Shown: one piece after another, positions 42,454-64,000 of the stretch
Layout of the letters: each line of letters starts with the position of its first letter
Position numbering within the stretch: the first letter of the stretch is position 1
Assembly (NCBI GenBank): GCA_965112635.1
Contig: OZ218778.1
Span: 243,666 to 307,665, forward strand
Reading direction: 5' to 3'
Length of the DNA: 64,000 bases
DNA from: an uncultured bacterium
Lineage (GTDB): Bacteria; Oederibacteriota; Oederibacteriia; Oederibacteriales; Oederibacteriaceae
Translations under genes and position numbers: made by a program
The notes under the pieces: generated by a model
What the model was told of the DNA's origin: nothing
Seen by the model: the letters and a program-made list of their open reading frames with translations, nothing else
The model's database searches: none

Positions 42454-42849
42454 CTAGACACAGACTGTTTCCCCAATACCCAGCAGGTCTTTGACCTGAT
42501 CGATAAAACTCCTATTATCTATGGGCTTGGAAATATAGGAGTCAAACCCGGCTGCCCATATCTTTTCCTGTTCGTCTCTCATAGCCAGGGCAGTCAGGGC
42601 CACGACCTTCACGCCCGCGGTCCTTTGCTCACCCCGGATCCGCTTAAAAATGGTAAAGCCGTCCACCTCCGGCAGATTGATATCCAGCAGGACGAGGTCG
42701 GGGACACAGCTTTCCAGCACCCGGAAGCACTCCTCCGCGTTGAACGCCTTCAGCACCCTGAGCCCCTGCATTTCCAGCAGGGCCTCGGCAAGCCTCATAT
42801 TCGCTTCATCATCCTCTACCATCAATACTGTTTTGCTTTGCGTGAACAT
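42454..42849 (-). CDS. single-domain response regulator (receiver only)
   Basis: 131-aa CheY-like receiver (LMVEDDE, LLDINLPEVDG, YISKP). Confidence 0.8.
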   Translation of the reverse strand: MFTQSKTVLMVEDDEANMRLAEALLEMQGLRVLKAFNAEECFRVLESCVPDLVLLDINLPEVDGFTIFKRIRGEQRTAGVKVVALTALAMRDEQEKIWAAGFDSYISKPIDNRSFIDQVKDLLGIGETVCV

Positions 42850-45022
42850 GAACTCCTCCTTGTAGGATCAAAATTCTTTCCGCAGTTTCCGTGCCGCAAA
42901 CTTCTCCCGGTGCCGGCTGCGGCCTGACTGCGCTGAGATCCGGTAAAGCTAAATAAAACCGGGAACCCTTGTCTTTGCCCTTGCTCTCGCACCACAACCG
43001 GCCTTTCTGCATATCCGCTATTTTCTTGGAAAGCGCCAGGCCCAGCCCCGTGCCTCCATACTGGCGGTTGAGGCCGCCCTGGACCTGTTCAAATTCATTA
43101 AATATCCTGAGCTTGTCTTTTTCTTCGATACCGATGCCCGTATCCTCAACGCAGATGCTTATCTCCCCGTTGTTTCCGCCCGCGGTCAGGCGGATCTCCC
43201 CGCCTTCCGGGGTGAATTTGACCGCGTTGGAGAGCAGGTTATTGACCACCTGCTTTATCATGCGTTCATCCGCATAAACAACGCCCGCTTCCCTGGCCAC
43301 CTGCAAAGAAACTTTGATCCTCTTTTTCTGGATCTTATCCGTCACCATCATCAGACTGGACTCCAGGAGCTTTCTGAGATCCACCTCGCTCGCCTCCGAG
43401 GTCACTTTGCCGGTCTCTATCTTGTTCAGGTCCAGAATATCGTTGATCAGGGAAAGCAGATGCTTGCCGCTATCGTAGATATTTAGGGCATACTCGGACT
43501 GCTTAGCGGTCAGCGGCCCGACATCGCCCGACTTCATCATGTCCGAAAACCCGATGATGGCATTAAGGGGAGTTCGTAATTCATGGGACATCGTGGCCAG
43601 GAAAGCCGACTTGGCCCGGTTGGCGGATTCGGCCGTTTCACGGCCCAGATTGGCCTCTTCAATTTTTTTGCTCAAGGTGATATCCCTGACCGTGGCCTGC
43701 AGGAATTGCTTACCCTCCAGTTCCATGCGGGTCAGAAGTACGGTAGCGGGGAAATCCTCGCCGTTTATCCGTTTGTGTGTCCACTCAAATAGGTTATTTC
43801 CCTCCCGCATCGCTTTTTCGATCATTTCCTTGGCCTTTTCGCCGGATGGCCGGCCGTCCGGCTGTTTTTCCGGGGATAACTTACCCGGTCTGTAGGAATT
43901 AAAATCCTTTGAGTCCTTTGCTCCGAACATCCTGACCGTTTCCGGATTTCCTGAGGTGAAATTCCAGTCAGGCGGCTTCAGGGTCATCAGGGCGTCGCTG
44001 GAATATTCAAATAGATAACGGTATCTTTCTTCGCTTTTTCTCAGGGATTCTTCCATGGTTCGGCGGGAGGTGGCGTCACGGAATATCCCCATCATATACT
44101 GCTTGCCTTCCAGTTCGATTTGGTGGGAACTGATATCCGCGTAAATAAGGGAGCCATCCTTTCGTTTAAAAGGCACATCTGTTTCCATCAAAACCTGGTT
44201 TTTGGGGCCTTTATCAAATCTTTCCGCGGCACTCCCAAAAGCCTGGGGAGGATGGATATCCCTGACGCCCATGCGAGTCAATTCCTCATGCCCGTAGGCC
44301 AGGAGTTGGCCCATGCTCTGGTTCGCGTCAAATATTTTCATGGTTTGGGGGTCCACCAGCATGATGCCGTCCGAGGCATGGTCAAAAATGGCCTTGAACT
44401 TGCCTTCCCCCAGGCTCAAGGCTTTGCTGGTCCTGTTCCGCTCGGTGAGGACCATCCTTTGGGCGATAAGAAAACCAATAAAGACGAAGAACCCGACCAC
44501 CCCAAAGACATTGTTCCGGGCCTGGATGTTTTTTTGCATCGTGGAAACGAACAGCGACCTGATAGTGTTCCTCAAGGTGAAAGCATTTTTGAATACTTCA
44601 TCGGCCTGCCGGGGACCCGGTTGTTCCAAAGTCCCTGGGGTGGCTGCGCCATATTGGACCGGCGTATCCTGGATCCACAGGGGGGACATACCGGACAGGG
44701 TGGCCTCAAAGTTTTTTTGGACTTTTTGCAGGAGCGCCTTGTCCTGGGCGCTGGTAAAACTTTTGAGGGCTGTAGCCAGCAGGCCCTCTAAAGTGCTGGT
44801 TTTTTTATCCCACTCGGTTTTTAGTTGCTGGCTGGGATACAGCAGGTACCTGGCCCTCAGGACGATCCTGGCCGAAACCGTGTTGCTCATTTCATCGGCG
44901 AGCTGGAGGTTCCGGCTGGCCAGGGTAATATCCCTCAGGGTCCAGGCCAGGGCCAGGAGCATGAGCACGACCCCTCCCGCATATATCCATCCATTGTCTT
45001 TCATCCATTTATCCATCCTCAT
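42809..45022 (-). CDS. membrane-anchored PAS sensor histidine kinase
   Basis: N-terminal TM, PAS domains, H-box SHELRTPLNAI, HATPase motifs. Confidence 0.8.
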   Translation of the reverse strand: MRMDKWMKDNGWIYAGGVVLMLLALAWTLRDITLASRNLQLADEMSNTVSARIVLRARYLLYPSQQLKTEWDKKTSTLEGLLATALKSFTSAQDKALLQKVQKNFEATLSGMSPLWIQDTPVQYGAATPGTLEQPGPRQADEVFKNAFTLRNTIRSLFVSTMQKNIQARNNVFGVVGFFVFIGFLIAQRMVLTERNRTSKALSLGEGKFKAIFDHASDGIMLVDPQTMKIFDANQSMGQLLAYGHEELTRMGVRDIHPPQAFGSAAERFDKGPKNQVLMETDVPFKRKDGSLIYADISSHQIELEGKQYMMGIFRDATSRRTMEESLRKSEERYRYLFEYSSDALMTLKPPDWNFTSGNPETVRMFGAKDSKDFNSYRPGKLSPEKQPDGRPSGEKAKEMIEKAMREGNNLFEWTHKRINGEDFPATVLLTRMELEGKQFLQATVRDITLSKKIEEANLGRETAESANRAKSAFLATMSHELRTPLNAIIGFSDMMKSGDVGPLTAKQSEYALNIYDSGKHLLSLINDILDLNKIETGKVTSEASEVDLRKLLESSLMMVTDKIQKKRIKVSLQVAREAGVVYADERMIKQVVNNLLSNAVKFTPEGGEIRLTAGGNNGEISICVEDTGIGIEEKDKLRIFNEFEQVQGGLNRQYGGTGLGLALSKKIADMQKGRLWCESKGKDKGSRFYLALPDLSAVRPQPAPGEVCGTETAERILILQGGVHVHAKQNSIDGRG

Positions 45023-45065
45023 ATTCCTGTCCCCCTTCCCAAAATAGCCATGACCCTTTGATGCA

Positions 45066-46631
45066 TCATTGGAATTCTTCCTTACCGGCCATCACCATCT
45101 GGAAGGCCTTGGCCTCTTCCCGGCGGCCTAAAGAAATCAGCGGTTTAACAAAGGAAAAAATGGTCTTTTTTTCACTGGCCGCAGCCAGGGGCAGGCTAAA
45201 ACTTATGGAATTGTCCCCCTTGGAGGGAAAATCCACCTTGATTTCGCCCTGATGCGACTCCACGATCCTCTTGGCTATGGCCAGCCCCAGGCCTATGCCC
45301 GGGATATCGCCCGCGCCCTCTTTGTCCACCTGATAAAAAGTGTCAAAGATCTTCTGCCGTTCCTCGCAGGGTATGCCGGGGCCGTTATCGCCCACAGAGA
45401 ACCTGACCAGGCCTTGCTCCTGCCTGGCCGTGAAAGTGAGCTTGACTATCTTTTGGTCGTTGAATTTCACGGCGTTCTCAATGAGGTTGCTCAACAGTAT
45501 CTCCAGCATCACCGGGCTGAGCCGCAGCCCCACCATGCTGCCCGGCAGGTCGAATGTGTATTCGATCTCTTTATCCGTATGCTTTTTGAGGATGGCCTTC
45601 ACGATTCCCTCTATCCGGTCCATATACACAGAGCCCTCTCCGACACCTTTGCCCCCGTAACGGGCCGCCGTGTCCACATTGACAAAATCCGTTATTTTTT
45701 CCATCACCTTTGAAAACTCGGCCAATCTTTTCATCGTGGCCTCTGCGGAGTCCCTGAGCCGGGTATTTTTCATGGCCACAAAGGCCTCTTTCATCTGGGC
45801 CAAATGGCCCAGGCTCAGGTTCAGGGGAGCATGCACTTTTTGGGCGATAAGGTTGAGAAAATTTGCTTTCCGGTGCTTTTCTCCCCTCTGTTCCGTCACG
45901 TCATGCAAAATGATGACCACGCTGGTTGTCCTGCCCTGGCTGTCCCTGATCACCCTGGAACTGAAACTAAGTATCAGCGGCCAGTAGGTGGGGAACTCGG
46001 GCCGCTCCAGGTCAAAATCAAGGTCGTCAATGACCAGGTCGGTCTTCAGCTCGCCTTCATAATGGACCTTAAAGGTCTGGTGCAGGCGGTCCAGCCAGTC
46101 CGGGGACGGCTCCACAAAGCTCAGCAGCTCCCGGGCCAGCTGGTTGGACCGGACGATCCTCAGGTCCGCGTCGCAGACGATCAACCCTTCACTGGCCCGC
46201 TCAATGACCTTTTCCAGCTTTTTCTTTTCATCCACCCGGGAGCGTTCATTGTGGAGCTGGAGGAGCGTCTTGACCTTGGCCAGCACTTCATTGATATCAA
46301 AAGGCTTGGAAATAAAATCATCGCATCCCGCCTCTATCCCGGAGATCCGGGCGCTGGTTTCGGCCAGCGCCGTGATCATCACCACGGGCAGCGTCTTAGT
46401 GCTTTCCGCGGCCCGGATCTTCCGCGTCACCTCGAAACCATCCATATCCGGCATCATCACGTCCAGCAGGACCAGGTCTATTTTTTCATAGGTGAGTTTC
46501 CTTAGGGCCTGCCCCCCGTTTTCCGCGGTGACGACCTCGTAACCCTTGGACTTGAACAAAGTGGCCAGGAGCTCCACATTAAGGGGCTCGTCGTCCACCA
46601 CCAAAATCGTGGTTTTTTCAACTATATTCAT
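45066..46631 (-). CDS. receiver-PAS-histidine-kinase-like fusion protein
   Basis: N-terminal receiver (ILVVDDEP, LLDVMMPDMDG), central PAS, C-terminal HATPase-like domain; ATG 46631 overlaps upstream stop (ATGA). Confidence 0.75.
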   Translation of the reverse strand: MNIVEKTTILVVDDEPLNVELLATLFKSKGYEVVTAENGGQALRKLTYEKIDLVLLDVMMPDMDGFEVTRKIRAAESTKTLPVVMITALAETSARISGIEAGCDDFISKPFDINEVLAKVKTLLQLHNERSRVDEKKKLEKVIERASEGLIVCDADLRIVRSNQLARELLSFVEPSPDWLDRLHQTFKVHYEGELKTDLVIDDLDFDLERPEFPTYWPLILSFSSRVIRDSQGRTTSVVIILHDVTEQRGEKHRKANFLNLIAQKVHAPLNLSLGHLAQMKEAFVAMKNTRLRDSAEATMKRLAEFSKVMEKITDFVNVDTAARYGGKGVGEGSVYMDRIEGIVKAILKKHTDKEIEYTFDLPGSMVGLRLSPVMLEILLSNLIENAVKFNDQKIVKLTFTARQEQGLVRFSVGDNGPGIPCEERQKIFDTFYQVDKEGAGDIPGIGLGLAIAKRIVESHQGEIKVDFPSKGDNSISFSLPLAAASEKKTIFSFVKPLISLGRREEAKAFQMVMAGKEEFQ

Positions 46632-48103
46632 TGCTTTTCCTTCTCCTGACAGCAAGTTGCCTCAAAAATACCGGCGAGCATCCGGCCTTTCTCGTCGGCA
46701 TCTCCCGGCTGGTAGCTTTTGCCCGATACCCCGGACCGGCCCACGGGCAGATGGATATAAAAAATGGTCCCCTGTTCCTGGGATGTTTTATAAAAGATAT
46801 GACCCTTGTGCGCTTCCACGATCTCCCGGCAGATGGACAGCCCCAGTCCCGCGGCCCGCTCCGCGGTTTTGGTGGTAAAGAACGGCTCAAATATCCTGCC
46901 GCGTATCTCCTCCGCGATGCCCGGACCCCTGTCCTTGACGCTGATTTGGACCTTGTCCTCGCCCAGATGGTCGGCCGCCAGCGAGGTCCTTATTTCTATG
47001 ATGCCATCCTTTTGAACGAGCGAGATGGCCTGGGCCGCGTTGTGGATGAGATTAAGGAAGACCTGCTGCATCTTCAGCTCATCGCAGCGGACCGGGGGCA
47101 GGTCCAAGGCCGGTTCAAAGACCAGTTTGATGCCGTGCATGGTCAGGATATTCTGGACGATCTGGATGCTCCGCCTCAGGCAAAGGTTGATGTCCAATGT
47201 CTCCAGGCCGGGCTCATTGTTCACGGACAGGCTGATGGTCCGCTTGACCATCACCTGGCACTGGGTCCCTTCGCGGATGATGTTGTCCGCGGCTAGCATC
47301 CTGCCCTCCGGGCCCAGGTATTCCTGCTGGAATTTTTCCGCCTCCCGGACCATCAGGGTCAGGGAATCATTGACGCTCTCGGCCATGCCGTGCAGTATTT
47401 CCCCCAGGGTGGCCATGCGCTGGGTGCGGTCCAGCCGGACCTGCGCCATCTTCACTTCCCTGGTCAGCTTCTCGCTGAGCTGGCGGCTGTTCTCGGACTG
47501 CTTCCTGAACCCGCGTTCCTGCTCCATCAGGAAGCTGTAGAAGATGGTCAGGACAAAGATAAAGGGGATGCGTATCAAAAAGGTCGTCTCCATCAGGCTC
47601 TGGCTCATGATGCCCGTGGAATGCAGGACCATCAGCGCGTACACGCCCGAGACGACCCCAGCGATCAGGAGGTTTTCCAGCAGGTTGCGCCCAATGGCCA
47701 CCATAAAGATAAGGAGGAAATAGGCCAGGTAAAGGTCGGTATCAAATTTACGGAGCAGGAGGATGGCCAGGGTGATGACAGCCGTGTCAAAAATGAACAG
47801 CACCAGGTTTTGCCAGGCCTGGTCAAAACGCGCCAGCCTGGAAACAGTCACCCAGATATTGGACGCGGCGTAGCAGGTCAGCAGAAGGGCCAGTAGAACC
47901 AAGTTCCAAAAATGCATTCCCCGGCCGGCGTAGATCATAAAAAGGGTGAGGGTCAGGAGCACCATCCAGCGGAGCATGAGGATGGCCCGCTTGGTACCCT
48001 GGCTGCCTTCCTGCTTCACGGTCATGCCTCGGAACAACTTAAGGGCCTGTTCACGGGCTCCATACAGGACACCCTTCAGCCGACTTGCCAAAACCTGTTC
48101 CAT
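46628..48103 (-). CDS. sensor histidine kinase with polytopic membrane N-terminal domain
   Basis: ~5 TM helices then HisKA/HATPase (NLIHNAAQA, DRGPGI, GLGLSI). Confidence 0.8.
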   Translation of the reverse strand: MEQVLASRLKGVLYGAREQALKLFRGMTVKQEGSQGTKRAILMLRWMVLLTLTLFMIYAGRGMHFWNLVLLALLLTCYAASNIWVTVSRLARFDQAWQNLVLFIFDTAVITLAILLLRKFDTDLYLAYFLLIFMVAIGRNLLENLLIAGVVSGVYALMVLHSTGIMSQSLMETTFLIRIPFIFVLTIFYSFLMEQERGFRKQSENSRQLSEKLTREVKMAQVRLDRTQRMATLGEILHGMAESVNDSLTLMVREAEKFQQEYLGPEGRMLAADNIIREGTQCQVMVKRTISLSVNNEPGLETLDINLCLRRSIQIVQNILTMHGIKLVFEPALDLPPVRCDELKMQQVFLNLIHNAAQAISLVQKDGIIEIRTSLAADHLGEDKVQISVKDRGPGIAEEIRGRIFEPFFTTKTAERAAGLGLSICREIVEAHKGHIFYKTSQEQGTIFYIHLPVGRSGVSGKSYQPGDADEKGRMLAGIFEATCCQEKEKQ

Positions 48104-48369
48104 ACTGCCTCCCCCTTCGCATGCGAATGGTTAACAACATAGTCAACACTATCATTTGCGGGATAAAGGCAGAAGGAGCCAGGGCTGTAAATACATTGAT
48201 TTTTAAAGGGTAATTAGCTGTCCTGGAGCAGGAGATAATTGGAGTATTGTTGAGAAAAAGCTATTTCATACCTCATTTCAGCAAGTACCCCTTTTTGTCC
48301 ACTTGATGAAATGAGCCTACCACCCCATTTTCTCTGTTCAATGTTGTTTCTCTAGTTCAGGGTTCTGAC

Positions 48370-49950
48370 TGGGGAACGGGGAAGGGGGATTGTTAAACAG
48401 CTGGTTGCTCAGGCATACAGGGCTTTGTGGACCGCGGCGAGCATGGTTTCGGACTCGTAGGGCTTGCCCAGGAACCGGTAACCCAGCTTGTCCAATTCGG
48501 GCAGTTCTATCCTGTCGTCCAGATAGCCGCTGCAGACCAGCACCTTGATGCCGGGGTTCTGCCTGCTGACCTCCTCCGCGAGCTGTCTGCCGTCCATGCC
48601 TGGCAGGATCATATCCGTAAAAAGCAGGTTGAATTTTTTCTTTTCTTCTTTAAAAGAGATGAGGGCCTCCTCTGCGTTCTGTGCGGGAAACACAATATAA
48701 CCATGCTTCTGGAGGATGACCGTGCTCAGGGCCAGGTTTTCCGGCTGGTCTTCCACCAGCAATATCCTTTCTCCGGTCCCCCGGCCGTACTCCAGCGCTA
48801 TTTTTTTTGACTCCCTGGGTTCCTCGCTCTTTCTGGTGTCCATAGGGAGCCACACCTTGAACTCCGTGCCCTGACCCGGCTGGCTGGACACATTGATCCA
48901 CCCGTTATGCTGTTTCACGATGCCATAGGTGACCGACAGCCCCAGTCCCGTGCCCTTGCCACGGGTCTTGGTGGTAAAAAAGGGCTCAAATATTTTTGCC
49001 ATGGTTATCGGCTCCATACCCTTCCCGTTGTCTTTGACCGTCAGGCACACGAACTCGCCAACCCGGGCTTCGGATATTTCCAGGGCCTGGCTCTCGCTTA
49101 GAGTGCAGTTGCAGGTCTGGATGAGCAATTGGCCGCCCTGGGTTATGGCATCCCGGGCATTGACGCAAAGGTTCATCAGGACCTGTTCCATCTGGGTCTG
49201 GTCGGCGTAGATGGCCTGGAGGCCCTTATCCAGCTCCAGTTTCAAAGTAACCTTTTCACCCACTGCCTCTTTGAGCATCTTTTCCATATCCTGGACCACT
49301 AGATTCAAGGAAAGGGACTTGGGGGACAGGTTTTGTTTGCGGCTGAACGCCAGCAGCTGACCGGTCAGGGCAGCGGCTTTTTTACCCGCGCCCTTTACTT
49401 CCTCCAGATAGGATTGGACAGCATCCCGGTCATCTTTTTTGATGAGGGCCAGGTCAGAGTAACCGATAATGACATTAAGCAGGTTGTTGAAATCATGGGC
49501 AATGCCTCCGGCCATCTCCCCGATAGAGGCCAATTTTTGGGCCTGCATCAGGCCCTGTTTCAGGAGTTTAAATTCCGTCACATTGGAGGCTATGGTGGAG
49601 AAACCGATGGCCTGGCCATTTTGTCCTTGAAGCGGGGTTATGGTCAAAGCCACCTGGATGGTCTCCCCGTTCTTGCGCAGGTGCTCGGTCTCAAAATGGG
49701 CAATTTTATGGCCTGCGTTGAGTTGCTCTGTAAGCATCCGCATCTCTTCTTTGCGTTCCGCGGGAACCAGTTGTTCCGCAGACATTCCAATGGCTTCCGC
49801 TGGGGAATAACCATAAATCTTTTCCGCACCCCTGTTCCAGCTCGTGATGAGGTTCGCCAAATCCCTGCTGAATATCGCGTTATCCGAGGATTCCACGATC
49901 GTCGCCAGCAGGCGGTCTTTTTCTTCCGCTTTCCGGCTCTCGGTGATGTC
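48370..49950. repeat. paralogous segment (3' part of hybrid kinase plus ~40 bp of 3' flank) duplicated at ~53130-54710; bounds approximate
   Basis: long near-identical protein stretches ([61 protein letters not shown]) and shared downstream GGGAAGGGGGATTGTTAAACAGCTGG. Confidence 0.6.
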
Positions 49951-51081
49951 CCTGGAAACGGCGAGTAAACCTATGATCTTTTTGTGTTCCGCCCCTTCCC
50001 AGATGGGGGTTTTGACTTCCCAGAACACCCGGCCATTCTCCGAGACGACCTCCTCGGTGGTCTGTTCGCCCTGTAAAACCCGGGCCTCAATGGCCTTGAT
50101 CTGCTCGGCCGCGCCAGTGGGCATCAGTTCGGAGTCCTGACGGCCTATCAATCCCTCCAGGGAACAGCGGAACAGCTCCAGGGTCGCCTTGTTGCCGTAA
50201 ACATACCGGGACTGGGCGTCCTTGAAATAGACATAAACGGGTATCTGGTCCATGATCTCCCGGAAACGCTGGGCTTCGTCCAGAGCCCTGAGCAGTTTCA
50301 ACTCCTCCTGCTTGCGTTCGGTGATGTCCTCGGATATGCCCAGCAAATATTTCGTGACCCCATCCTCCCCCCGAATGCAAACCTTGCGGGTATGAAGAAT
50401 CCGTTGGCCTTTCTTGGCTGTCAGGATAAATTCTTCCGGGATATCCAGCATCCCCGCTTCGCCATCCAGCACCTCACGGTCTTTGCTCATGAAATTGGCC
50501 GCCTGTTCAGGAGGGAAAAGGTCCAGGTTATTCCTGCCCAGCAGGTCTTTGCGGTCATATCCCAGGAGTTCCTCGCCCGCGCGGTTGAATATGACGAAAC
50601 GCAGGTCTTTGGACTCTTTGAGGAATATCATGAGCGGAATATTTTCTACGACGGATGCGAAAAGGCTTTTCGATTCCCTCAACTCCCTCTCCGACCGCTT
50701 GCGCTCTATGGCATATCTCAATGAACGGATCAGCAGGGAACCGTCAAATTTCCCTTTAACCAGATAATCTTCCGCGCCCGTATGAAGGGAATCCACAACT
50801 AGTGCTTCATCATCCAGCCCGGTGATCACCACCACCGCGGTCCCGGGGGCATTGCCCAGGATGCTTTTCAGCGTAGTGATCCCCTGACTGTCCGGCAAAT
50901 TAAGGTCTAGTATGAGGCCGTCAAACGAACTCTTGCGTAACTGATCGACCGCGTTATCCAGCGTGCCTACAGTTGATATTTCATACCGGCCGACACCGGC
51001 TTTTTTGACCATTTCCTGGATGAGCCGAGCATCGCCCGGATTGTCCTCGACCAATAATAGTTTTATCTTTGGCTCCTCCAT
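48409..51081 (-). CDS. hybrid sensor histidine kinase (REC, 3x PAS, HisKA, HATPase, REC)
   Basis: 890-aa ORF; N-terminal receiver [11 protein letters not shown]-box [11 protein letters not shown]-terminal receiver [10 protein letters not shown]. Confidence 0.85.
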   Translation of the reverse strand: MEEPKIKLLLVEDNPGDARLIQEMVKKAGVGRYEISTVGTLDNAVDQLRKSSFDGLILDLNLPDSQGITTLKSILGNAPGTAVVVITGLDDEALVVDSLHTGAEDYLVKGKFDGSLLIRSLRYAIERKRSERELRESKSLFASVVENIPLMIFLKESKDLRFVIFNRAGEELLGYDRKDLLGRNNLDLFPPEQAANFMSKDREVLDGEAGMLDIPEEFILTAKKGQRILHTRKVCIRGEDGVTKYLLGISEDITERKQEELKLLRALDEAQRFREIMDQIPVYVYFKDAQSRYVYGNKATLELFRCSLEGLIGRQDSELMPTGAAEQIKAIEARVLQGEQTTEEVVSENGRVFWEVKTPIWEGAEHKKIIGLLAVSRDITESRKAEEKDRLLATIVESSDNAIFSRDLANLITSWNRGAEKIYGYSPAEAIGMSAEQLVPAERKEEMRMLTEQLNAGHKIAHFETEHLRKNGETIQVALTITPLQGQNGQAIGFSTIASNVTEFKLLKQGLMQAQKLASIGEMAGGIAHDFNNLLNVIIGYSDLALIKKDDRDAVQSYLEEVKGAGKKAAALTGQLLAFSRKQNLSPKSLSLNLVVQDMEKMLKEAVGEKVTLKLELDKGLQAIYADQTQMEQVLMNLCVNARDAITQGGQLLIQTCNCTLSESQALEISEARVGEFVCLTVKDNGKGMEPITMAKIFEPFFTTKTRGKGTGLGLSVTYGIVKQHNGWINVSSQPGQGTEFKVWLPMDTRKSEEPRESKKIALEYGRGTGERILLVEDQPENLALSTVILQKHGYIVFPAQNAEEALISFKEEKKKFNLLFTDMILPGMDGRQLAEEVSRQNPGIKVLVCSGYLDDRIELPELDKLGYRFLGKPYESETMLAAVHKALYA

Positions 51082-51094
51082 TTTTTCCTGCGTC

Positions 51095-51544
51095 CTATCC
51101 TTGGAGAGGAAGCTTAACCACGGTCAGCCAGAAATCCTCTATAATTTTAACCACTTTATAAAACTGATTAAAATCCAAAGGTTTGGTGATATAGGCATTG
51201 GCATGAAGATTGTAGCTTTTTATAACATCCTCGTCCGCCTTGGAAACGGTCAAAACCACCACGGGAATGCTTTTCAAGGCCTCATCGGATTTGACCTCTT
51301 TTAGAACTTCCCTGCCGTTCTTCTTGGGGAGATTCAGGTCAAGCAAGACAATGTCCGGGCGGGATAATTTTTCGTATTTTCCCTGCTTCCTAAGATAAGC
51401 CATAGCTTCCACCCCATCCCCTACAACATTCAAAGCATTCCTTATCTTGGCATCCTTGAACGCCTCCTGGATAAGCCGAATATCACCCGGATTGTCCTCC
51501 ACCAGCAGTATTTCTATCGGCTTTCCTATATTATTCATTTCCAT
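51095..51544 (-). CDS. single-domain response regulator of the phytochrome-associated (Rcp-like) CheY type
   Basis: 149-aa receiver ([27 protein letters not shown]). Confidence 0.85.
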
Positions 51545-51559
51545 TTTCCCCTCCTCCTA

Positions 51560-52655
51560 TTAATCTTTTAAAGTGAAATAAAAAACTGTGCCCTTTCCAT
51601 ATTCGGACTCATACCATATCTTCCCCCCATTACGCTCCACGATACGCTTGCAAACAGCCAGGCCCACCCCGTTACCGGGGTACTTGACCCCTGCCAACCG
51701 CTGAAATAGGGAAAAAACCCTATCCTTATACTGGGGTTCTATTCCGATACCATTGTCCTTGATGGAAAAAACAACCTCTTTTCCCTTTTTCCCCGCAGAA
51801 AGATGAACACACGGTGCCTGTTCTCCGCAAAACTTGATGGAGTTGGCAATGAGATTCTGCAAAACCTGAAGAAGCTGGGAGGGGTCGGCCATGACCGCTG
51901 GCAAAGGATCTGTGGGTAATGACCGCTTTATTCTCTAATATGGCCAATTTCAGATTGGCCAGAGCGCCTTTAAGGACCTCCTCGGTATCCACCAGCTCCA
52001 GGGGTTTAGCCTGGGACTCTACCCGTGAGAATAATAACAGACCGTCAATGAGTCCCTGCATGCGGGTAGCTCCGTCTACGGCGAAATTGATGAATTCATC
52101 AGCATCCTGGTCCAGTTTGCCTTTATAGCGTTGCTCTATCAATTGAAGATAACTTACGACCATCCGGAGCGGCTCCTGCAGGTCGTGGGAGGCGATATTG
52201 GCGAACTGCTGGAGGTCTTCATTGCTGCTTTTTAGTTTTAAGGCATATTTCCTAATCTCCTCTTCCTCTTTGTGCCTGGTGATGTCCTCGATGGCCAGAA
52301 GAATGATATGCTCTTTTCCTAATGCTCTCTGAATTTGCCTTGCATTCAAAAGTAAGATGCGCCGGCCAATGGTGTCAAAATCGTGCTCCACCTCAAAATT
52401 GTCAAAGGAGGTCTTTTGAGGAAGGATGTTTTCCAGCAGTTCCCTTAGCTGGGGAATATTCCACTGTTTGTTACCCAGGTCATAGATTAACTGCCCCACC
52501 GTCTCTGCCGGGTTTACCTTAAAAAATTCATAGAAGGAACGGCTGGCGGAGATGACCCTGAGGTCCTGGTCCAGAACGACCAAGGGTTCGCGAATGGTAT
52601 TGATAATGCTTTCGGCGTATTCCTGGGATTCTACTGCTGTTTTTTCGCTAAACAT
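51560..52655 (-). pseudogene. PAS sensor histidine kinase, frame broken near 51905-51925 between HisKA and HATPase
   Basis: ORF 51726-52655 carries PAS and H-box (SHDLQEPLR); ORF 51560-51904 carries N-box/HATPase (QVLQNLIANSIKF, DNGIGI) in another frame. Confidence 0.65.
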
Positions 52656-52712
52656 TTCTTATCTCCTTGCTGGCTGCCTGGCCGCGTTCCCTGGCCCTTT
52701 CAGGCCAAGGCT

Positions 52713-52895
52713 TTACCTATGGAGTGAAAATACTACTGAGCTTGTTTTTGCAGGAGTTCGGATTGTAGGATGGTGATGTCTGTGGGTGGTGCGGCTCGAG
52801 GTGAAATTATTCTTGCAGGTATGGTTGAGTCCCTCAAAAATACTTCCCTTGAGGCTGGGACATTTCATATCACAGGTACAGTTATCTTTGGTCAT
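52713..52895 (-). pseudogene. internally deleted remnant of an FNR-like regulator gene (paralog of 56524-57219)
   Basis: N-terminal 27 codons (MTKDNCTCDMKCPSLKGSIFEGLNHTC) match the intact paralog; last ~12 codons in another frame (ILQSELLQKQAQ, stop at 52734) match its C-terminus. Confidence 0.55.
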
Positions 52896-52901
52896 TTTCT
52901 A

Positions 52902-52915
52902 CCCCCCCCCCCCCC
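52902..52915. repeat. C14 homopolymer (G14 on the minus strand) followed by A7, 6 nt upstream of the remnant ATG
   Basis: read directly. Confidence 0.9.
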
Positions 52916-53129
52916 GAAAAAAAGGGTGGAGGTTTCTACAATTAAGTTTAATCCTCTTCCTCTGCATTAGGAAGATATAAAAAAATTATCTTTTGCAAAT
53001 GGATATTGGGCCATTAACCGTCTTAAGAAAGCTGAGCAATATCAAGGGGTTTGCAACAATAGCGCCCCAAACAAGGGTTTTATTGGGTAACATGGATCAT
53101 AATTCAAAAATCCTCCTCTACCTCCCCCT

Positions 53130-54710
53130 TTTCTGTAAAGGGGGAAGGGGGATTGTTAAACAGCTGGCTGCTCAGGAATACAGGGCTTTTTGGACCGCCG
53201 CCAGCATGGTTTCGGATTCGTAAGGTTTGGCTAGGAACTGGAAACCTTGGTTGGTGAGTTCGTTTTGCTCCACGATCTTATCCAGATAACCGCTGGTCAC
53301 CAGCACCCGGATGTTAGGATTCTCTTTTCGGATTTCCTTGATAAGTGCATTCCCATCCATGCCGGGCAGAATGATGTCGGTAAAAAGCAATTTAAACCCT
53401 TTTTTCTCTTCCTTGAACGCCCTGAGGGCGTCTTCTGCATTCTCAGCGGGAAAAACAGTATAACCTTGTTCTTCGAGTATCTTGGTGGCCAGGGCCAGAT
53501 TGTCCGGCTGGTCCTCCACCAAAAGTATTTTTTCACCAGCGCCCCGGCCGTGCTCCAGGGCTATTTTCTTTTGTAGCTTGGGCTCCTGGTCTTTGCGTTC
53601 ATCCCTGGGGAACCATATCCTGAACTCTGTGCCTTTCCCAGGCTGACTGGACACATTGATCCACCCGTTATGCTGTTTCACGATGCCATAGGTGACGGAC
53701 AGGCCCAGGCCCGTGCCCTTGCCCCTGCTCTTGGTGGTAAAAAAGGGGTCAAATATTTTGGTCAGGGTCATGAAATTCATTCCTATACCGTTGTCCTTGA
53801 CTGTCAGGACTATAAAATCCCCGGGACGGGCTTCACGGATAACCTGCGCTTCTAACTGGCCAAGGGACACTGCCTGGGTCTTGATAAGCAGTTGGCCTCC
53901 CTGAGGCATGGCGTCGCGGGCGTTGACGCACAGGTTCATCAGGACCTGCCCTAACTGGTTCTGGTCCGCATATATTCTTTCTTGTCCTTTACTCAAGGCC
54001 AGCGTAAGCACGACGTGTTCACCCACCGCCTCTTTGAGTATTTTTTCCATACCCAGGACCACTTCATTCAGGGATAAGGACTGGAGGGACTGGTTCTGTT
54101 TGCGGCTGAAGGCCAGCAATTGTCCGGTCAGGGAGGCGGCTTTTATGCCCGCGCCTTTTATCTCCTCCAGGTAGTTCCTGGCGGCAGTCCAGTCATTGGC
54201 TTTCATCAGGGCCAAGTCAGAATAGCCGATGATGACGTTGAGCAGGTTGTTGAAATCATGGGCAATGCCTCCGGCCAATTCCCCGACAGAGGCCATTTTC
54301 TGGGTCTGGACCAAATCGCTCTGCAGGCGCCGGAATTCGGTGATATCGGTGGCGATGGTGGACCCGCCGACGACCTGGCCGTTCTTGTCGTAGATAGGCG
54401 AAAGGGCCAGCATCACCTGGACCCGGGTCCCATTTTTATGCAGGCGCTCTGTCTCAAAGCGCAGTATGGGTTGGCCAAGGTTAAGTTTTTTGGTGATCTC
54501 CAGCATCTCTTCCCTGCGTTCCGGAGGGACCAATTTTTCCGCGGACATGCCGATAGCCTCCTGGACGGAATACCCATATATCTTTTCCGCGCCCTTGTTC
54601 CAGCTCAAAATTATTTGATGATGGTCCCTGCTGAATATCGCGTCACCTGAGGATTCCGCGATGGTGGCCAGCAAGCGGTTTTTTTGTTCGGCTTCCCGGC
54701 GCTGGGTAAT
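53130..54710. repeat. second copy of the paralogous hybrid-kinase segment (see 48370-49950); bounds approximate
   Basis: same shared protein stretches and 3' flank. Confidence 0.6.
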
Positions 54711-56507
54711 ATCTTGGACATAGTTCACAAAATAAAGGATAACTCCCGTGGAGGGCTTGCGCACTGCAGCCACAGACACATTGGCCCAAATAATCCGGCC
54801 GTCCTTGCGTAAATACCGCTTTTCTAGGATGGCATTGTCAGCCTCACCCTCCGTCATGCTCCTCATGGCTTTTAACCCTATTTCATAATCTTCCGGATGA
54901 GTGATGCTGTTAAAGGTTTTGCCTAAAAGCTCATTCTCACCAAACCCCAGCATTTCGTTCATGGCCCGGTTGACCCTGAGATACCGGCCTTCAATATCCA
55001 CTAGGCTGACCCCGACCACGGCGTTTTCAAAAGAGGTCCTGAAAAGCTCCTCGCTCTCGGCCAAGGCCTTTTCAGCTTGCCGGCGTTCAGTCACATCGCT
55101 CATAAAATTGAGCGTAGCCAGCCGGCCCTGCCATTCGATCCTGACGGCGTTTATCTGCACCCAGCGCAGCTGGCCCGAAGCGGTCAGGATGCGGAACTCA
55201 TATATTTTTTCCAGGTCCTCCCCAGCCAGCCGTCTCAGGTGGTTTGCCGCGACCATGGCCCGGTCTTCCGGATAGATGAAATCAGTGAAAGGATGGCGGG
55301 ATATCTCTTCGGGTGGATATCCCAATTCCCGGACTGTGGCCTTGTTCACGAAAACCAGTTTGTTGTCCTGGGCCACCATGATCATTTCCTGGGAATTTTC
55401 CACGACCTGGCGGTATCTTTTCTCGCTCTCCCGCAGTGCTTCTGAAGCTTTCCTGAACTCGGTAATATCCCTTGCCGAGCTGAGCGTCCCGGTGATGCGC
55501 CCCTCCTCATCATGGACAAGGGAGTTATGAAAAGCCAATAAACGCCTGTCTCCTTGTTTGGTGACCACAAAATTCTCAAAATATTCAACTGGCTTGATAG
55601 CGCCGGAGATGATCTGGTCAAAAACAGAATGGACAGCCTGATACTCCTCGGGAGTAACGCAGGTCTTGAACCAGTCCTTGCCCAGGAGCTCTCCCTCCTG
55701 GTAACCGAGGAGTTCGTGACCCTTACGGTTGAGGAGCACGACCTGGCCCTGGGTGTCCAGCACCACCATCAATACCTGGGCAACTTCAAGATATTCGGAG
55801 GCTTTTCTTCTTTCGGCCCTTAAATACGCCACATCCTTCTTGCGCAGGGTCACATCGTTGGCCATGGATATATTTAACTTTCGCCCATCCGCGGTCCGGC
55901 CCAAGGCAGTAGATTGAAATTCCCAAACCCGGGTCTTCCCGCTTTTCGTCTTGACTGTGAACTCTCCCTCATTGTACCGGATGCCATCGTCCAGAGAAAA
56001 AAACAGATTTCTCCGGGACTGGACTTTGTCCTTTTTCAGCCCATAGGCAAGCTCAAGCCAAGCATCTAGTGTAGGTATGTCCGCCCGGCTATATCCGGTC
56101 AGTTCTTCCCAAACCTGGTTGACCCGGATGACCTCGCCATCCTCCGCGTAGATCATGATGGGAAACGGTGACAGCTGTATCACTTTTTCCCGCTGTTCCA
56201 GGCTGAGCCTCTCGGCTTTTTCTATGTGCTGGAGCAAAACGACCACGATAAACATGGAAAGGGATAAGGCAAAACGCCTCCCGGTCTCCAGAGGGTCAAT
56301 CGTGCTGGGAACATGGTTTACGAGCATCTGATACAGGGGGGAAAACGCAGGTAAAAGATCAAAACAAGGGCCAAACCCATGAAGGACCAGGAGACTTTCC
56401 TTTTGGACTTGGGCAGGCCCAGGAGGACCATCACCATGGCTATGAGGGCAATGATGGCCGAGGCCACATTGACCACGGTCAAAAACATGGCTGTCCCTCC
56501 TTTTCAA
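53172..56507 (-). CDS. hybrid multi-PAS sensor histidine kinase with C-terminal receiver; N-terminus uncertain
   Basis: multiple PAS, H-box [10 protein letters not shown], HATPase, receiver [10 protein letters not shown]; a 56-aa 2-TM ORF with strong RBS (56318-56488) lies in a neighbouring frame across a C6 run. Confidence 0.8.
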
Positions 56508-56523
56508 TGTATGGTGACGATGA

Positions 56524-57219
56524 TTACTGGGCTTCCTTTTGCAGGAGTTCGGACTGCAGGACTGTGATCCTTTTGCCTACCAGGGAAATGATCTTTTTTT
56601 TCTCCAGTACTTTCAGGGCCCGGATGGCGGTCTCCTGGGCCGTGTCCGCCAGCTCGGCCAGCTCGGTCCGGGAAAGCTGGATGTTGAGCGAACCGTCCTT
56701 GGCCGGAGCATAGTCCCGGGCCAGCTTGCACAGCACCTCGGCCACCCGGTTCTTGACCGGCTTTTGGACCGCGCTTTCCAGCCGGGACAGGGTGTCGCCC
56801 ACCTCGGCTCCCATCCGGCTCATGATGTTCTCTCCCAGCCGGGGATCCAGCCCCAAGGCCGCGAATAAAATGGAGCGTTCAATGAAGCAGACCTGGGTTT
56901 CCTCCAGGGTTTCCGCAGAGGTGAAATTGACCTTGCCCGACATCAGCGCGGACACACCCAGCGCATCACACGGTCCGGCGATCTGGACGATCTGCTCGCG
57001 GTCCAGGCGGCCGGTTTTGTAGAGTTTTACTTTTCCGGAACGGATGTGATAAATGCCGTAGGGTTTATTGCCCTCATAAAAAAGGTTTTGTTTGGGTTTG
57101 TAGGTGTTGGTGGTGCGGCCCTTGGCGATATAATCCAGGCATTCATGGTTAAGCCCCTCGAATATACTTCCCTTGTAGCCGGGACATTTGGCGTCACAGG
57201 TCCAGTTTTGATTGACCAT
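56524..57219 (-). CDS. Crp/Fnr-family regulator with FNR-like cysteine pattern
   Basis: cNMP-binding-like fold plus C-terminal HTH (LSRTELAELADTAQETAIRALK); N-terminal C8-x3-C12-x14-C27 plus internal Cys (GPCDALG); AAGGAAG RBS before ATG 57219. Confidence 0.8.
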   Translation of the reverse strand: MVNQNWTCDAKCPGYKGSIFEGLNHECLDYIAKGRTTNTYKPKQNLFYEGNKPYGIYHIRSGKVKLYKTGRLDREQIVQIAGPCDALGVSALMSGKVNFTSAETLEETQVCFIERSILFAALGLDPRLGENIMSRMGAEVGDTLSRLESAVQKPVKNRVAEVLCKLARDYAPAKDGSLNIQLSRTELAELADTAQETAIRALKVLEKKKIISLVGKRITVLQSELLQKEAQ

Positions 57220-57302
57220 CCACGCTTCCTTTCTCCCCTGCCTCAATGTCTACATATAAAGTATAGTCCTTATAACCTGATTTCTGACAATGAAATGGCT
57301 GG

Positions 57303-57698
57303 CTAATTCGATCCGGGCAGGAGGTCATTGAGGGTCTTGAGAAACTGAGTTATATCCATGGGTTTAGAGATATAGCCGTCAAAGGAGTACGATTGGACCT
57401 CTTCCCGGTAATGGGGATTGCCCATGCCTGTGAAACTGACGACCTTGACGGCTTTGAAAGCCTCATTCTGCCGGATCATTTTGAAAATCTCAAATCCGTC
57501 AATGTCAGGAAGCCCGATATCCAGCAGGACAATATGTGGAACTATGGTGTCCAGGATTTCTATGGCCTCCTCACCTGTCGCGGCCTGATGGACCTGCCAG
57601 CCGTCCATTTTTAGGATCTCCACGGATATCTTCAGATTGGTCGGATGGTCCTCTACGACCAAAATGATCTTGGTTTTTACCTTTTCGCCATTAGCCAA
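57303..57698 (-). CDS. single-domain response regulator (receiver only)
   Basis: 131-aa CheY-like receiver (ILVVEDHPTN, LLDIGLPDIDG, YISKP). Confidence 0.8.
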   Translation of the reverse strand: MANGEKVKTKIILVVEDHPTNLKISVEILKMDGWQVHQAATGEEAIEILDTIVPHIVLLDIGLPDIDGFEIFKMIRQNEAFKAVKVVSFTGMGNPHYREEVQSYSFDGYISKPMDITQFLKTLNDLLPGSN

Positions 57699-57866
57699 TG
57701 TTTACTCCCCGTTGCCATGGATTGGTTTCTCGAATTTTTGTACCACTAATCTACCTTATAATTGGAAATCCCGTCAAGTTCCAGTTCAGTTGGATTGATG
57801 AGATATCGGGCAGGGCAATCCTTTTGATAATGATTCTTTCCCAACCGCCAGGGCCATCACAAATTT

Positions 57867-58883
57867 TCAGTCAGCACTCTGGTCGCCTATCTTGTGCTTG
57901 GCTATCTCGCAAAAACACCGCGTATGATTGGCGCACTGCGGGTCATACACCATGGCTTTTTTCAGATTAGAGACGGCGGCCTTGTAAAGCTCCGGGTCGC
58001 CGGTGAGGATACCCAAGCTCATCTGGGTGAGGCCGCAAAGACGATACGCCGCCACGTATTGCGGATCAAGCTCAATGGCTTTGTTAAAACAGGAGACGGC
58101 TCCCTTGATGTCATTGATCTGCCATAAATAAAATCCCCTATTATAATATTTCTCCGCCTCTCCCACGCTGATGCCGTCATTGGGGATCTTATAGCCCATG
58201 AGTTCCACATCTTTCTGGAGATGGATCAGGGAAATAACGACCACCGGATTGGATGAGTCTATTTTGGCCAGAGCCTCCGAAGCGCAATGCCGGACCTGCT
58301 GATCCGGGTCACTGAGCAGCTGGAACAGGGCAGGCATGGCGTCTTTATCAGAGGGATCGATGTTTCCCAGGACACCCGCGGCACAGCAGCGGACATTCCC
58401 ATCCGAGTCCTTGAGAAGATCCAGGAGCGGCGAGAGGATTTCTTTGGTTAGCGGTTTGATCTGTTGCAGGGCTTCCGCGGCCTTGGAACGGACCTCGGCA
58501 TCCTGGTCCTTGAGCATTCCCAGAAGAACAGGCACGTCTTTTTCACCGACTTTATTCCAATCCAAGTTCCCGGGTTTAGCGCTTGGAGCTACGGATTCCG
58601 CGGACTTTAAGGACCGCAGATCATTTTCTAGTTTTATTTTATCCGCCCTGACAGCCTCCGCAACCCGTTGTTTAAGTTCTGTATCTATACTTACTTTATC
58701 CTGCTCCATGGCCTTCAGATCCGCCTTGAGCGTGGCCTGGTCCTGCGCGATGGTTAGTTCGAGCTGATCGACCATGGGGTTGGCTGCCACAGGCAGGGTA
58801 GCCATTATGGTCATAAGCACGGCGATGCAAAAAAATACTATCAGTGCAGGGCATGAGTTTTTTGGGACAGCCAAGTTTTCCAA
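57867..58883 (-). CDS. secreted/membrane-anchored HEAT-repeat plus TPR-repeat protein
   Basis: three HEAT-like repeats (DAEVRSKAAEAL, DGNVRCCAAGVL, DQQVRHCASEAL) then TPR-like region; start uncertain (TTG 58883 with GGAGG, or GTG 58931). Confidence 0.6.
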   Translation of the reverse strand: MENLAVPKNSCPALIVFFCIAVLMTIMATLPVAANPMVDQLELTIAQDQATLKADLKAMEQDKVSIDTELKQRVAEAVRADKIKLENDLRSLKSAESVAPSAKPGNLDWNKVGEKDVPVLLGMLKDQDAEVRSKAAEALQQIKPLTKEILSPLLDLLKDSDGNVRCCAAGVLGNIDPSDKDAMPALFQLLSDPDQQVRHCASEALAKIDSSNPVVVISLIHLQKDVELMGYKIPNDGISVGEAEKYYNRGFYLWQINDIKGAVSCFNKAIELDPQYVAAYRLCGLTQMSLGILTGDPELYKAAVSNLKKAMVYDPQCANHTRCFCEIAKHKIGDQSAD

Positions 58884-59056
58884 GGTCGTACACCTCCGCT
58901 TTCCTCTAGTGCAAGTGTACCCCTGGACCAAAAAATCCCTTATGACGCAGGAAGACTGGCCGATTGATATTTGGATACGGAAAAGCTGACGCAGGTCAAT
59001 AGATGAAGGGTGTGTTTTTCAGGATTTTAAGCAATTTTCCGTAAAAAACTTTGGGG

Positions 59057-59941
59057 TTAGGGCCTTTTGGAGCCCCGGGCTAGCATCAGGGAAGGATTAA
59101 AATTCTCGTAAAGAGCAATATTTTTGCCTGATTTTTTAGCCTGGGCCACCAGTTGGCTGGCCTGCCTGAAGAGGTCCTGGCTTTCCGGAACATCCTCTCC
59201 CACGCTGACCAAACCGCAGCTGAAAGTGATCTTCCAGTTGTTGTATTCCATGGCCTTGTTCAGGTTCTGGTGGACCCTGTTCCAAAATTCTTTGGCGCCG
59301 GTTCCATCGATATTCACCAGCAGGACCCCGAACTCGTCCCCGCCCAGCCGGGCCACCTCGTCGCTTTCCCTGATATGCACTTTCAAAGTTTCAGCGACTT
59401 TGGCCAGCACCTCGTCGCCTGCCCTATGGCCCAGTGTGTGGTTTAAGTCCGCGAAATCATCCAGGTCAATGACCGCCAAGGTGTAGGGCGTATTTTTGTG
59501 CTGGCGTCTGTTCTCCTCGCGGTCCATGGCCTCATACAATCCCTGCCGGTTCAGGGTTTGGGTCAGATGGTCGGTCTTGGTAAGGACGATCTCGCGTTCC
59601 AGGGTTCCGCGGATGCGGCCGAGAAGGAGTGCGATAAGGGTGAAAACGGCGAGGTCCACTCCGCAATTCCAATAAGCAATGGTTTGTTGGGAATAGAGTT
59701 GATGGATGAAGTTCGTCCACACCGCAATGACTGCGCCCAAGGCCGTGCCAGCCCACCATCCCACGGTCCAGGTGGCCAACCCTACTGGAAAAATATAGAA
59801 AAGGAACAGGCTCGCTTCTTTGCCGGTAAGGTCATCTACATAAGTGATGATCAGGATGAGGAAAAGGCAGATGGCCAGGCGCATGGCATAGGGCAGTCTT
59901 TCCATCCAGCCGAACAGATTTTTTGGGTCAAAGTTTTGCAA
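59057..59941 (-). CDS. membrane-anchored diguanylate cyclase (GGDEF domain)
   Basis: N-terminal TM helices; GGDEF motif in RLGGDEFGVLL. Confidence 0.8.
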   Translation of the reverse strand: MQNFDPKNLFGWMERLPYAMRLAICLFLILIITYVDDLTGKEASLFLFYIFPVGLATWTVGWWAGTALGAVIAVWTNFIHQLYSQQTIAYWNCGVDLAVFTLIALLLGRIRGTLEREIVLTKTDHLTQTLNRQGLYEAMDREENRRQHKNTPYTLAVIDLDDFADLNHTLGHRAGDEVLAKVAETLKVHIRESDEVARLGGDEFGVLLVNIDGTGAKEFWNRVHQNLNKAMEYNNWKITFSCGLVSVGEDVPESQDLFRQASQLVAQAKKSGKNIALYENFNPSLMLARGSKRP

Positions 59942-59969
59942 GGCTCAGCACACCTCAAAAGTTATTACT

Positions 59970-60015
59970 GCTGGCAAGAAAATCACGGGCGTAAGCCCGA
60001 GAATGAATTGCCAGC
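59970..60015 (-). terminator. candidate structured 3' element/terminator after macB: 8-bp stem enclosing a CGGGC-GTAA-GCCCG hairpin
   Basis: nested inverted repeats read directly; only a weak T-run follows on the minus strand. Confidence 0.3.
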
Positions 60016-63124: not shown

Positions 63125-64000
63125 TTAAGGTTTAAGCTCTGACTCTAAAGTCAGACCCAAGGCTTTATCAAAACTTACTTTGGCTTGGGCGATATTGAGT
63201 TTATCGGAAAGCTGGCTCTGTTGGGCTGAAGTATAACCTGTTTCCGCCTGCTCAAAATCAAGGTACTGGGCCAGGCCTGATTCATACAAGGCCCGGACCG
63301 TCTTGAACCGCTCTTCCCCAGATTGGACGAGCAAATTGGTGTAAACAGTATGCTGCTGATCGGATACATAGGTGATCCAGGCCTGATAAAGCTGCAATTG
63401 CAAAGACCCGACAAGGTCATCCAGGTTATCTTTACTGGCCAGCCACTGATGGGTGGCCTGCGTGATGGAAGCCTCCTGGCCAAATCCGGAGAATAGGCTG
63501 AAACCTGTGGAAAGACCCACGCTTCCAGGTGGACTGGGTGGGAGGCCAGGAACTCCCATCAGAATAATTGTAGCCGCTGTTTAAATTAAGGGAAGGATAC
63601 CGCGTGGACAAACTGCCGTTCATTGCCGCCTCGGCGGCTTCCACGATAGCCTTTTGCAGCATCAAAGCAGGATTCTCCTCGTACATCCTTTCATACCACG
63701 GCTCGATCTCCTCGGGCGGTTCCGGGGTCTCTAGGTTTCCGGACACCTTGATAGTTTCCTTGATATCTCGCGGTTTACGTCCCAATAAGTAGGCCAAATT
63801 TTTTTGCTGTGAATCCAGATCTTCCTGGGACTGCTTGGTTTGCCATGCTATTTGCGCTTCTTCAGCTTCGGCTTGGAGATAAGCCCAGTGCGCTTCACGG
63901 CCGGATTTATACTGCATCTGGATATAACGGGTATCCTGGTTCAATCTCTCTTTGATGGATTCTAAAAGAACCAGGTTCAACTGGTCATAGATGATCCTGT
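63125..64000 (-). pseudogene. TolC-family outer-membrane factor, partial (5' end beyond window), frame broken near 63510-63560
   Basis: two overlapping ORFs (63125-63559, 63432-63980) both with outer-membrane-factor-like sequence; upstream frame still open at 64000. Confidence 0.65.

Follow-up and report, generated by a model that had tools for sequence, protein, structure and literature searches.

A probable remnant of a Crp/Fnr-type regulator gene carries a 14-15 nt G run at the position of its former ribosome-binding site

The 64-kb window analysed here, that is, the whole stretch of 64,000 nt from an uncultured bacterium, contains a spacer of 516 nt between the stop codon of a 1105-aa PAS hybrid kinase (HK1105, stop at 53172) and the start of the kinase gene HK364 (52655). 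This spacer holds a short open reading frame that resembles the beginning of a neighbouring Crp/Fnr-type regulator gene, and just ahead of it a long homopolymer. It raises the question of whether this stub is a small gene, a switch for the genes that follow, an artefact, or what is left of a dead gene. We consider, with a probability of about 0.78, that it is what remains of a second, now dead copy of the Crp/Fnr-type gene nearby, which has suffered a deletion of 533 nt and whose old Shine-Dalgarno (SD) tract has given rise to a G run.

In the part of the window that contains the relic, every gene is on the minus strand, and the order of the locus is RR131 - Crp/Fnr - HK1105 - terminator - spacer with the relic - HK364 - RR149 - HK890. 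More broadly, signalling genes are very frequent in positions 42800-60000, where the minus strand carries all of them: at least five histidine kinases and four stand-alone receiver proteins, with a Crp/Fnr regulator, a GGDEF protein and a HEAT/TPR protein, one of each. The TonB-receptor and TolC-like genes present in the window indicate a diderm.

The intact gene clearly encodes a member of the Crp/Fnr family, since its product, P0001, scores 53.3 bits for cNMP_binding (cut-off 27.5) and 51.6 bits for HTH_Crp_2 (cut-off 27). It belongs to a sparsely sampled branch of the family, in which its nearest relatives are 54% and 47% identical; the nearest homologue (L011) is found in an RR-Fnr-RR-PAS arrangement, similar to that of the intact copy. 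A scan of genome contigs for close relatives returned nothing above 37% identity to the Crp/Fnr gene (37% being the best value among GTDB species representatives), and a profile scan of metagenomes gave no homologues other than those of 54% and 47%, whose contexts are unrelated or short. Similarly, a pattern made of the exact relic flanks and a variable gap gave 0 matches in metagenome contigs, and the 90%-identity clusters of the local proteins contained this population alone, with no other strain in the public collections searched. The best identities of the DEAD-box helicase were 55-59%, to MAG proteins of Acidobacteriota, Gemmatimonadota and Bacillota. A literature search on the run and on the assembly accessions found no papers.

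When the spacer was compared with the window by blastn, two pieces of the intact gene were recovered. The 5' piece (52781-52883 against 57105-57207) is 75.7% identical over 103 nt (E = 2.5e-15) and the 3' piece (52734-52777 against 56525-56568) is 84% identical over 44 nt (E = 1e-7); both were found independently by a repeat search, as repeats D5 and D12. The 5' piece is collinear with the intact gene over about 39 codons, with an ungapped identity of 61/81 nt for codons 1-27, 12/21 for codons 28-34 and 12/15 for codons 35-39. The 3' piece corresponds to the final 14 codons and the stop, with 37/45 nt and 12/14 amino acids identical to the intact gene; in its own frame it reads ITILQSELLQKQAQ before the stop codon, and the intact gene ends in ITVLQSELLQKEAQ.

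On the minus strand, 163 nt extend from the ATG of the relic (52895), which also opens a mechanical 60-aa ORF, to its TAG (52733-52735), so that the 3' piece is +1 out of frame and the loss amounts to 696 - 163 = 533 nt. As three does not divide 533, both the loss and the change of frame are accounted for by one deletion. Codons 40-217 are missing: the cNMP-binding barrel is gone entirely, as is the dimer helix, and most of the helix-turn-helix is lost as well. The N-terminal cysteines C8, C12 and C27 are all kept. Compared with the domains that define the Crp/Fnr family, the remnant lacks PF00027 (no Pfam match was obtained in the 60-aa ORF) and PF13545, of which only the last 14 codons persist, out of frame. 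These results bear out the first-pass annotation, which had described an FNR-like copy in decay, with about 530 bp deleted and with a homopolymer in the old ribosome-binding position. Its two out-of-frame pieces also stand, and their extent had to be revised from 27 to about 39 codons (by ungapped identity) and from about 12 codons to 14 plus the stop. The features of the locus are collected in Table 1.

Table 1. Positions in the window of the relic, of its intact paralogue and of the neighbouring features
Feature	Position	Strand	Evidence or remark
Relic 5' piece, codons 1-39	52779..52895	-	blastn; protein identity; phmmer residues 2-40
Junction of the 533-nt deletion	52778..52778	-	resolution of a few nt; extra base sets the +1 frame
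Relic 3' piece, last 14 codons + TAG	52733..52777	-	blastn; repeat D12; 37/45 nt
Mechanical ORF of 60 aa across the relic, not considered a gene	52713..52895	-	no Pfam, no family, dN/dS ~0.85
G14 homopolymer (G15 in Logan contig L033)	52902..52915	-	homopolymer census; alignment to the intact SD tract
Relic of upstream (promoter-region) element AGGATTAAACTTAATTGTAGA	52935..52955	-	collinear with 57249-57270 upstream of the intact gene
Intact Crp/Fnr-family regulator P0001, 231 aa, source paralogue	56524..57219	-	Pfam cNMP_binding + HTH_Crp_2
SD tract AGGGGAGAAAGGAAG (purines only) in the intact copy, matching the G run in position	57225..57239	-	same 20-nt C-to-ATG interval in both copies
Terminator-like hairpin + U run after the 1105-aa hybrid kinase	53104..53154	-	-29.6 kcal/mol, z = -3.1, 0/200 shuffles as stable
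HK364, PAS-HisKA-HATPase kinase, first intact gene downstream of the relic	51560..52655	-	interrupted in the window version by one additional A (51911)
RR149 response regulator, 149 aa	51095-51544	-	completes the HK364 module
HK890 REC-PAS hybrid kinase, 890 aa	48409-51081	-	completes the HK364 module; RR149 + HK890 together 48409..51544

Within the relic, positions 52798-52816 (codons 27-33, KNNFTS) also match positions 56918-56936 of the intact gene (codons 96-102, KVNFTS) at 16/19 nt, in frame and non-collinearly. The score of this match was reached by 10/1000 shuffles, and it suits that 18-nt stretch of the relic better than the collinear alignment does. It may be due to chance or to a small templated patch.

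We then considered whether the stub could still be translated into something useful. Sixty codons are open, the ATG lies 6 nt past a G-rich stretch that is able to pair with the anti-SD, and the three cysteines C8, C12 and C27 are conserved; the 60-aa ORF could thus be a functional small protein which has kept the N-terminal Cys motif and uses the G run as its ribosome-binding site, with a proposed role as a metal- or cluster-binding peptide or as a modulator of the intact regulator. In our opinion this is very improbable. When 1.84 billion cluster representatives were searched with phmmer, only P0001 matched the 60-aa ORF (E = 7e-6, residues 2-40 to 2-40), so that its only homologue is the parent gene, and its C-terminal 21 residues are nothing but out-of-frame read-through into unrelated sequence. 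In addition, no Pfam domain was found in it, gene calling passed it over in the other assemblies, including the ENA contig, and the collection searched has no entry for its exact product. The three kept cysteines are regarded as an insufficient argument for a function.

Comparison of the stub with the intact gene by the Nei-Gojobori method (37-39 codons) gave pS 0.29, pN 0.26 and a dN/dS of 0.85-0.88, and the differences at codon positions 1/2/3 are 13/6/10, without any third-position excess. For the functional kinase paralogues nearby, dN/dS is 0.33; the ratio of the stub was reached in 8/74 kinase windows of the same short length. This test is consistent with decay and is not significant on its own. 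Concerning its origin, the N-terminal 39 residues of the stub are 56% identical to P0001 compared with 28-29% to the nearest outside homologues. As the stub is closest to P0001, it is a paralogue that arose within the lineage and not an old separate family. It thus combines the features by which a pseudogene is recognised, namely a significant homology and a disabling lesion, with no conserved family of the truncated product.

What of the homopolymer itself? The plus strand carries C14; read on the minus strand this is G14, and TAGAAA separates it from the ATG. The upstream spacer on the minus strand ends ...CCTCCACCCTTTTTTTC-G14-TAGAAA-ATG. The position that had been proposed for the tract, 6 nt upstream of the remnant ATG, is confirmed exactly at 52902-52915. 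The window contains seven G/C homopolymers of 6 nt, none of 7-13 and one of 14, and the number of G/C runs of at least 14 expected per window is between 0.001 (independent bases) and 0.011 (first-order Markov).

The intact copy indicates where the run comes from. In both copies 20 nt separate a C from the ATG, and these read AGGGGAGAAAGGAAG-CGTGG in the intact copy and G14-TAGAAA in the stub. Further upstream, an element of 22 nt is found in register, AGGATTAAACTTAAT-TGTAGA versus AGGACTATACTTTATATGTAGA, with 18/22 identical positions, a score that was reached by 6/500 shuffles. Since the G run aligns with the intact SD tract and homology resumes upstream of it, the run must have been derived in place rather than brought in by a mis-join. 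In the two outside genes that are closest, the SDs are ordinary (GAAAGGGA and GGGAGG) and no G tract is present, and the G run is therefore derived in the stub. Going from AGGGGAGAAAGGAA to G14 needs seven changes in the same direction within 14 nt, which looks more directional than neutral drift and counts against a simple decay.

The existence of the tract was checked in three assemblies of one population, in which it is carried between identical flanks as G14, G14 and G15: the NCBI contig of 2.88 Mb from which the window is taken (2,876,006 bp), contig_13894 of ENA ERZ25039471 (387 kb; loci L001 and L009), with the same G14 as the window, and the k=31 Logan contigs of ERR11523656. The Logan contig that contains the tract (L033, ERR11523656_2431093, 1165 bp) corresponds to window positions 53676-52513 with a single difference, the G15. 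It was found by predicting, from the Logan break points, the edge-partial product of the missing middle contig; the look-up returned a match.

That the homopolymer or its junction is a sequencing or assembly artefact, either a poly-G read artefact or a mis-join, and is absent from the genome appears extremely improbable to us. Three points speak for it: homopolymer sequencing is error-prone (PMC11140927), the window contig has three single-base indels that are not in the other assemblies, and the assemblies disagree on 14 versus 15. However, the three assemblies were built differently (one of 2.88 Mb, one of 387 kb with a different indel profile and one from a k=31 de Bruijn graph) and have identical unique flanks; none of the contigs concerned (2.88 Mb, 387 kb and 1.2 kb) ends at the tract, which a single k-mer is long enough to span; and on both sides the sequence is collinear with the intact paralogue, which is contiguous across the corresponding position. 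A mis-join or a phantom poly-G is thus effectively excluded. The first-pass annotation had hesitated between a slipped-strand hotspot and an artefact, and had named a mis-join as the finding that would overturn it. The mis-join has to be abandoned; a slippage hotspot and a homopolymer read error are both possible.

The window and the ENA contig, compared over ~17.5-20 kb, differ by three single-base indels and by no substitutions (~17.5 kb). In the window these are an extra A at 63523, C6 instead of C7 at 56335 and an extra A at 51911, and the k-mer contigs of ERR11523656 (L002 and L010) agree with the ENA version at 56335 and 51911, the two sites within their reach. Because of the additional A at 51911, HK364 is divided into ORFs of 309 and 114 aa, the exact 309-aa product being on record from the 2,876,006-bp contig; with C6 at 56335, the 1105-aa kinase loses its start; and at 63523 the additional A sits within a TolC/OEP-like gene that is called on the ENA contig. 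All three are probably consensus errors of the 2.88-Mb assembly, and the C6/C7 site at 56335 is the only one that could in principle be a real slippage site, within the kinase gene. In the window assembly, single-base indels probably split at least three genes falsely and, as far as the length of the G run is concerned, no single assembly is trustworthy. We conclude that the G run is physically real. As for its length (14 versus 15), either it is not stable within the population or reads cannot measure it; the difference of one base could be a true slippage heterogeneity or a homopolymer read error.

Two further observations were made on the Logan contigs. At window positions 52513-52542, in the conserved PAS motif of HK364, the overlap between L033 and L010 is exactly k-1 = 30 nt, which implies a branch in the read graph, caused by a strain variant or by a k-mer common to another organism. 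On L033, a 56-aa ORF is called antisense to the relic (732-902, corresponding to ~52775-52945 of the window, plus strand), in which the C run is read as PPPPP; its reading frame depends on the length of the tract and it is almost certainly spurious.

The first-pass annotation also placed a sensor kinase behind the remnant, in the same way as behind the intact copy. This is correct for the position, but HK364 is not a paralogue of the kinase behind the intact copy. The paralogues are HK1105 (residues 329-1105) and HK890 (residues 109-890), with 53% protein identity. Their genes match at a constant offset of 4763 nt (48375-50000 versus 53138-54763), with a 34-nt 3' element that is 94% identical. 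Two exact repeats, one of 50 nt (48884-48933) and one of 37 nt (49478-49514), are common to both genes, and it is here that the k=31 Logan contigs break. The position after the 890-aa kinase that is homologous to 53104-53154 shares the 5' arm of the hairpin and does not fold (z = -1.15). A single duplication that would have produced both the Fnr/relic pair and the HK1105/HK890 pair is unsupported: the synonymous divergence of the kinases (pS 0.61, dS 1.25) is to be compared with a pS of 0.29 for the Fnr/relic pair, and only 2/74 kinase windows are as low as 0.29.

The HK364-RR149-REC/PAS module is conserved in loci of other metagenomes, L028-L030 (JGI 3300029286 / 3300029268 and ENA ERZ27250635), with 65%, 65% and 31% identity. 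There, the kinase of 365 aa and the response regulator of 151 aa are located behind a spacer of 445 nt, and neither a Crp/Fnr gene nor a G tract is present upstream; the relic is therefore a lineage-specific addition ahead of an older operon. No similarity was detected between the spacer of the window and the spacers upstream of the orthologous HK365 genes.

Because the terminator-like hairpin precedes the spacer, the HK364 operon must be transcribed from inside the spacer, and a regulatory role of the predicted leader for the downstream operon is possible. Could the G run be part of it, as a genuine contingency (phase-variation) tract that switches the expression of the HK364-RR149-HK890 operon? 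According to this proposal, slippage between 14 and 15 would alter transcription or the structure of the leader, by an RNA G-quadruplex or by a hairpin with CCUCCACCC. The tract is far beyond chance length and unique in the window, its length differs by one base between assemblies of the same population, as that of a contingency tract would, and it lies in the only spacer able to launch the downstream operon, with a strong terminator-like hairpin in front of it. We nevertheless consider such a switch unlikely. At G14/G15 the run has the length that high-frequency slippage requires (about 8 or more), but it is located neither in a live ORF nor in a core promoter. A promoter scan limited to the sigma-70 type, which may not be that of this lineage, detected no sigma-70-like hexamer pair in 52500-53300 and hence none flanking the tract, and the scan for promoters and terminators found nothing around it. 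Shuffled sequences fold just as well as the hairpin of the G run with the upstream CCUCCACCC (z = 0.01), and a search of Rfam returned nothing at gathering thresholds.

The geometry of the site also argues against a switch. The 3' edge of the G run stays 6 nt from the dead ATG, and the next real start codon, that of HK364, is 247 nt downstream of the run and has its own SD, AAGGAG. As the run is ahead of a dead ORF and 247 nt away from the next start, a change of its length is without obvious effect on a reading frame or on promoter spacing. Moreover, with three single-base indels per ~17.5 kb between assemblies, a change of one base in a 14-mer is within the technical noise, and the orthologous modules found elsewhere do without an upstream G tract. 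The more specific claim that G14/G15 is a true hypermutable switch sitting on the remains of a regulator gene, which toggles or tunes the transcription or the leader of the HK364-RR149-HK890 module, is quite unlikely. If true, it would mean that a signalling pathway is subject to phase variation in an environmental bacterium, uncultured and deep-branching, outside the host-adapted pathogens known for such tracts. A real length heterogeneity and more such tracts in the genome, if seen, would point to contingency loci in a lineage with none known.

Two other signals in the spacer were examined. A 22-bit match to alpha_tmRNA at 52875-53111 was rejected as spurious, since there are no base pairs in the alignment, the sequence is AT-rich and ARAGORN detected no tmRNA. 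The FNR box TTGAT-N4-ATCAA gave 38 matches in comparison to 27 +/- 5 expected, of which one is in the spacer (53032-53045, with 2 mismatches) and is not informative.

We come back to the dead remnant of a second Crp/Fnr-type copy, for which the following history may be proposed. The regulator gene was first duplicated within the lineage together with ~60 nt of its upstream region. A single deletion of 533 nt then removed codons 40-217 and left the last 14 codons out of frame, both steps being visible in the sequence. Finally, once the gene was dead, only Gs would have been left in its purine-rich SD tract, presumably through slippage during replication and through changes of A to G. The stub would now be merely a part of the spacer, or leader, between the terminator of HK1105 and the HK364-RR149-HK890 operon. 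For annotation, 52713-52915 should be described as a Crp/Fnr pseudogene fragment and not as a small gene; beyond annotation it has little meaning. A function for the G run is unproven and mechanistically unsupported.

Comparison with known systems leads to the same picture. Like other bacterial pseudogene relics left by paralogous duplication, the stub has homology to a paralogue in the same genome, a large disabling deletion with a frameshift, substitutions that may be nearly neutral and no conserved truncated orthologues. There is no essential difference from them: the stub is an ordinary pseudogene fragment, with the one unusual trait that its old ribosome-binding site, the SD tract, is now a real G homopolymer of 14-15 nt. 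With E. coli FNR and the Crp/Fnr superfamily, the parent gene shares the cNMP_binding and HTH_Crp_2 domains, N-terminal cysteines and a conserved cysteine in a 'VCFI' motif, which we take to resemble the region of FNR Cys122; unlike them, the remnant has lost both defining domains, and the parent is only ~30-54% identical to any other sequence on record.

As for the homopolymer, two systems can be compared with it. In Bordetella, a frameshift in a C tract of bvgS, reportedly described by Stibitz et al. in 1989, is said to cause phase variation of a two-component system. The likeness is that of a G/C homopolymer at a two-component signalling locus, but the Bordetella tract is inside the coding sequence of the kinase and toggles its frame, whereas the present tract is outside any live ORF. 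In Neisseria, a poly-C tract of fetA and a poly-G tract of porA are located between the -35 and -10 hexamers, and the gonococcal porA pseudogene keeps a variable promoter tract (PMC5320596). The locus described here differs from these in that its tract does not lie between recognisable -35 and -10 hexamers, that its length variation may reflect read error and that it belongs to a diderm from the environment, uncultured, for which no repertoire of such tracts is known. It resembles them in having a long G/C run just upstream of a gene start, with a length that differs between sequence sets, and gonococcal porA, in which the gene behind the tract is also dead, is the closest known analogue of the G run of the stub.
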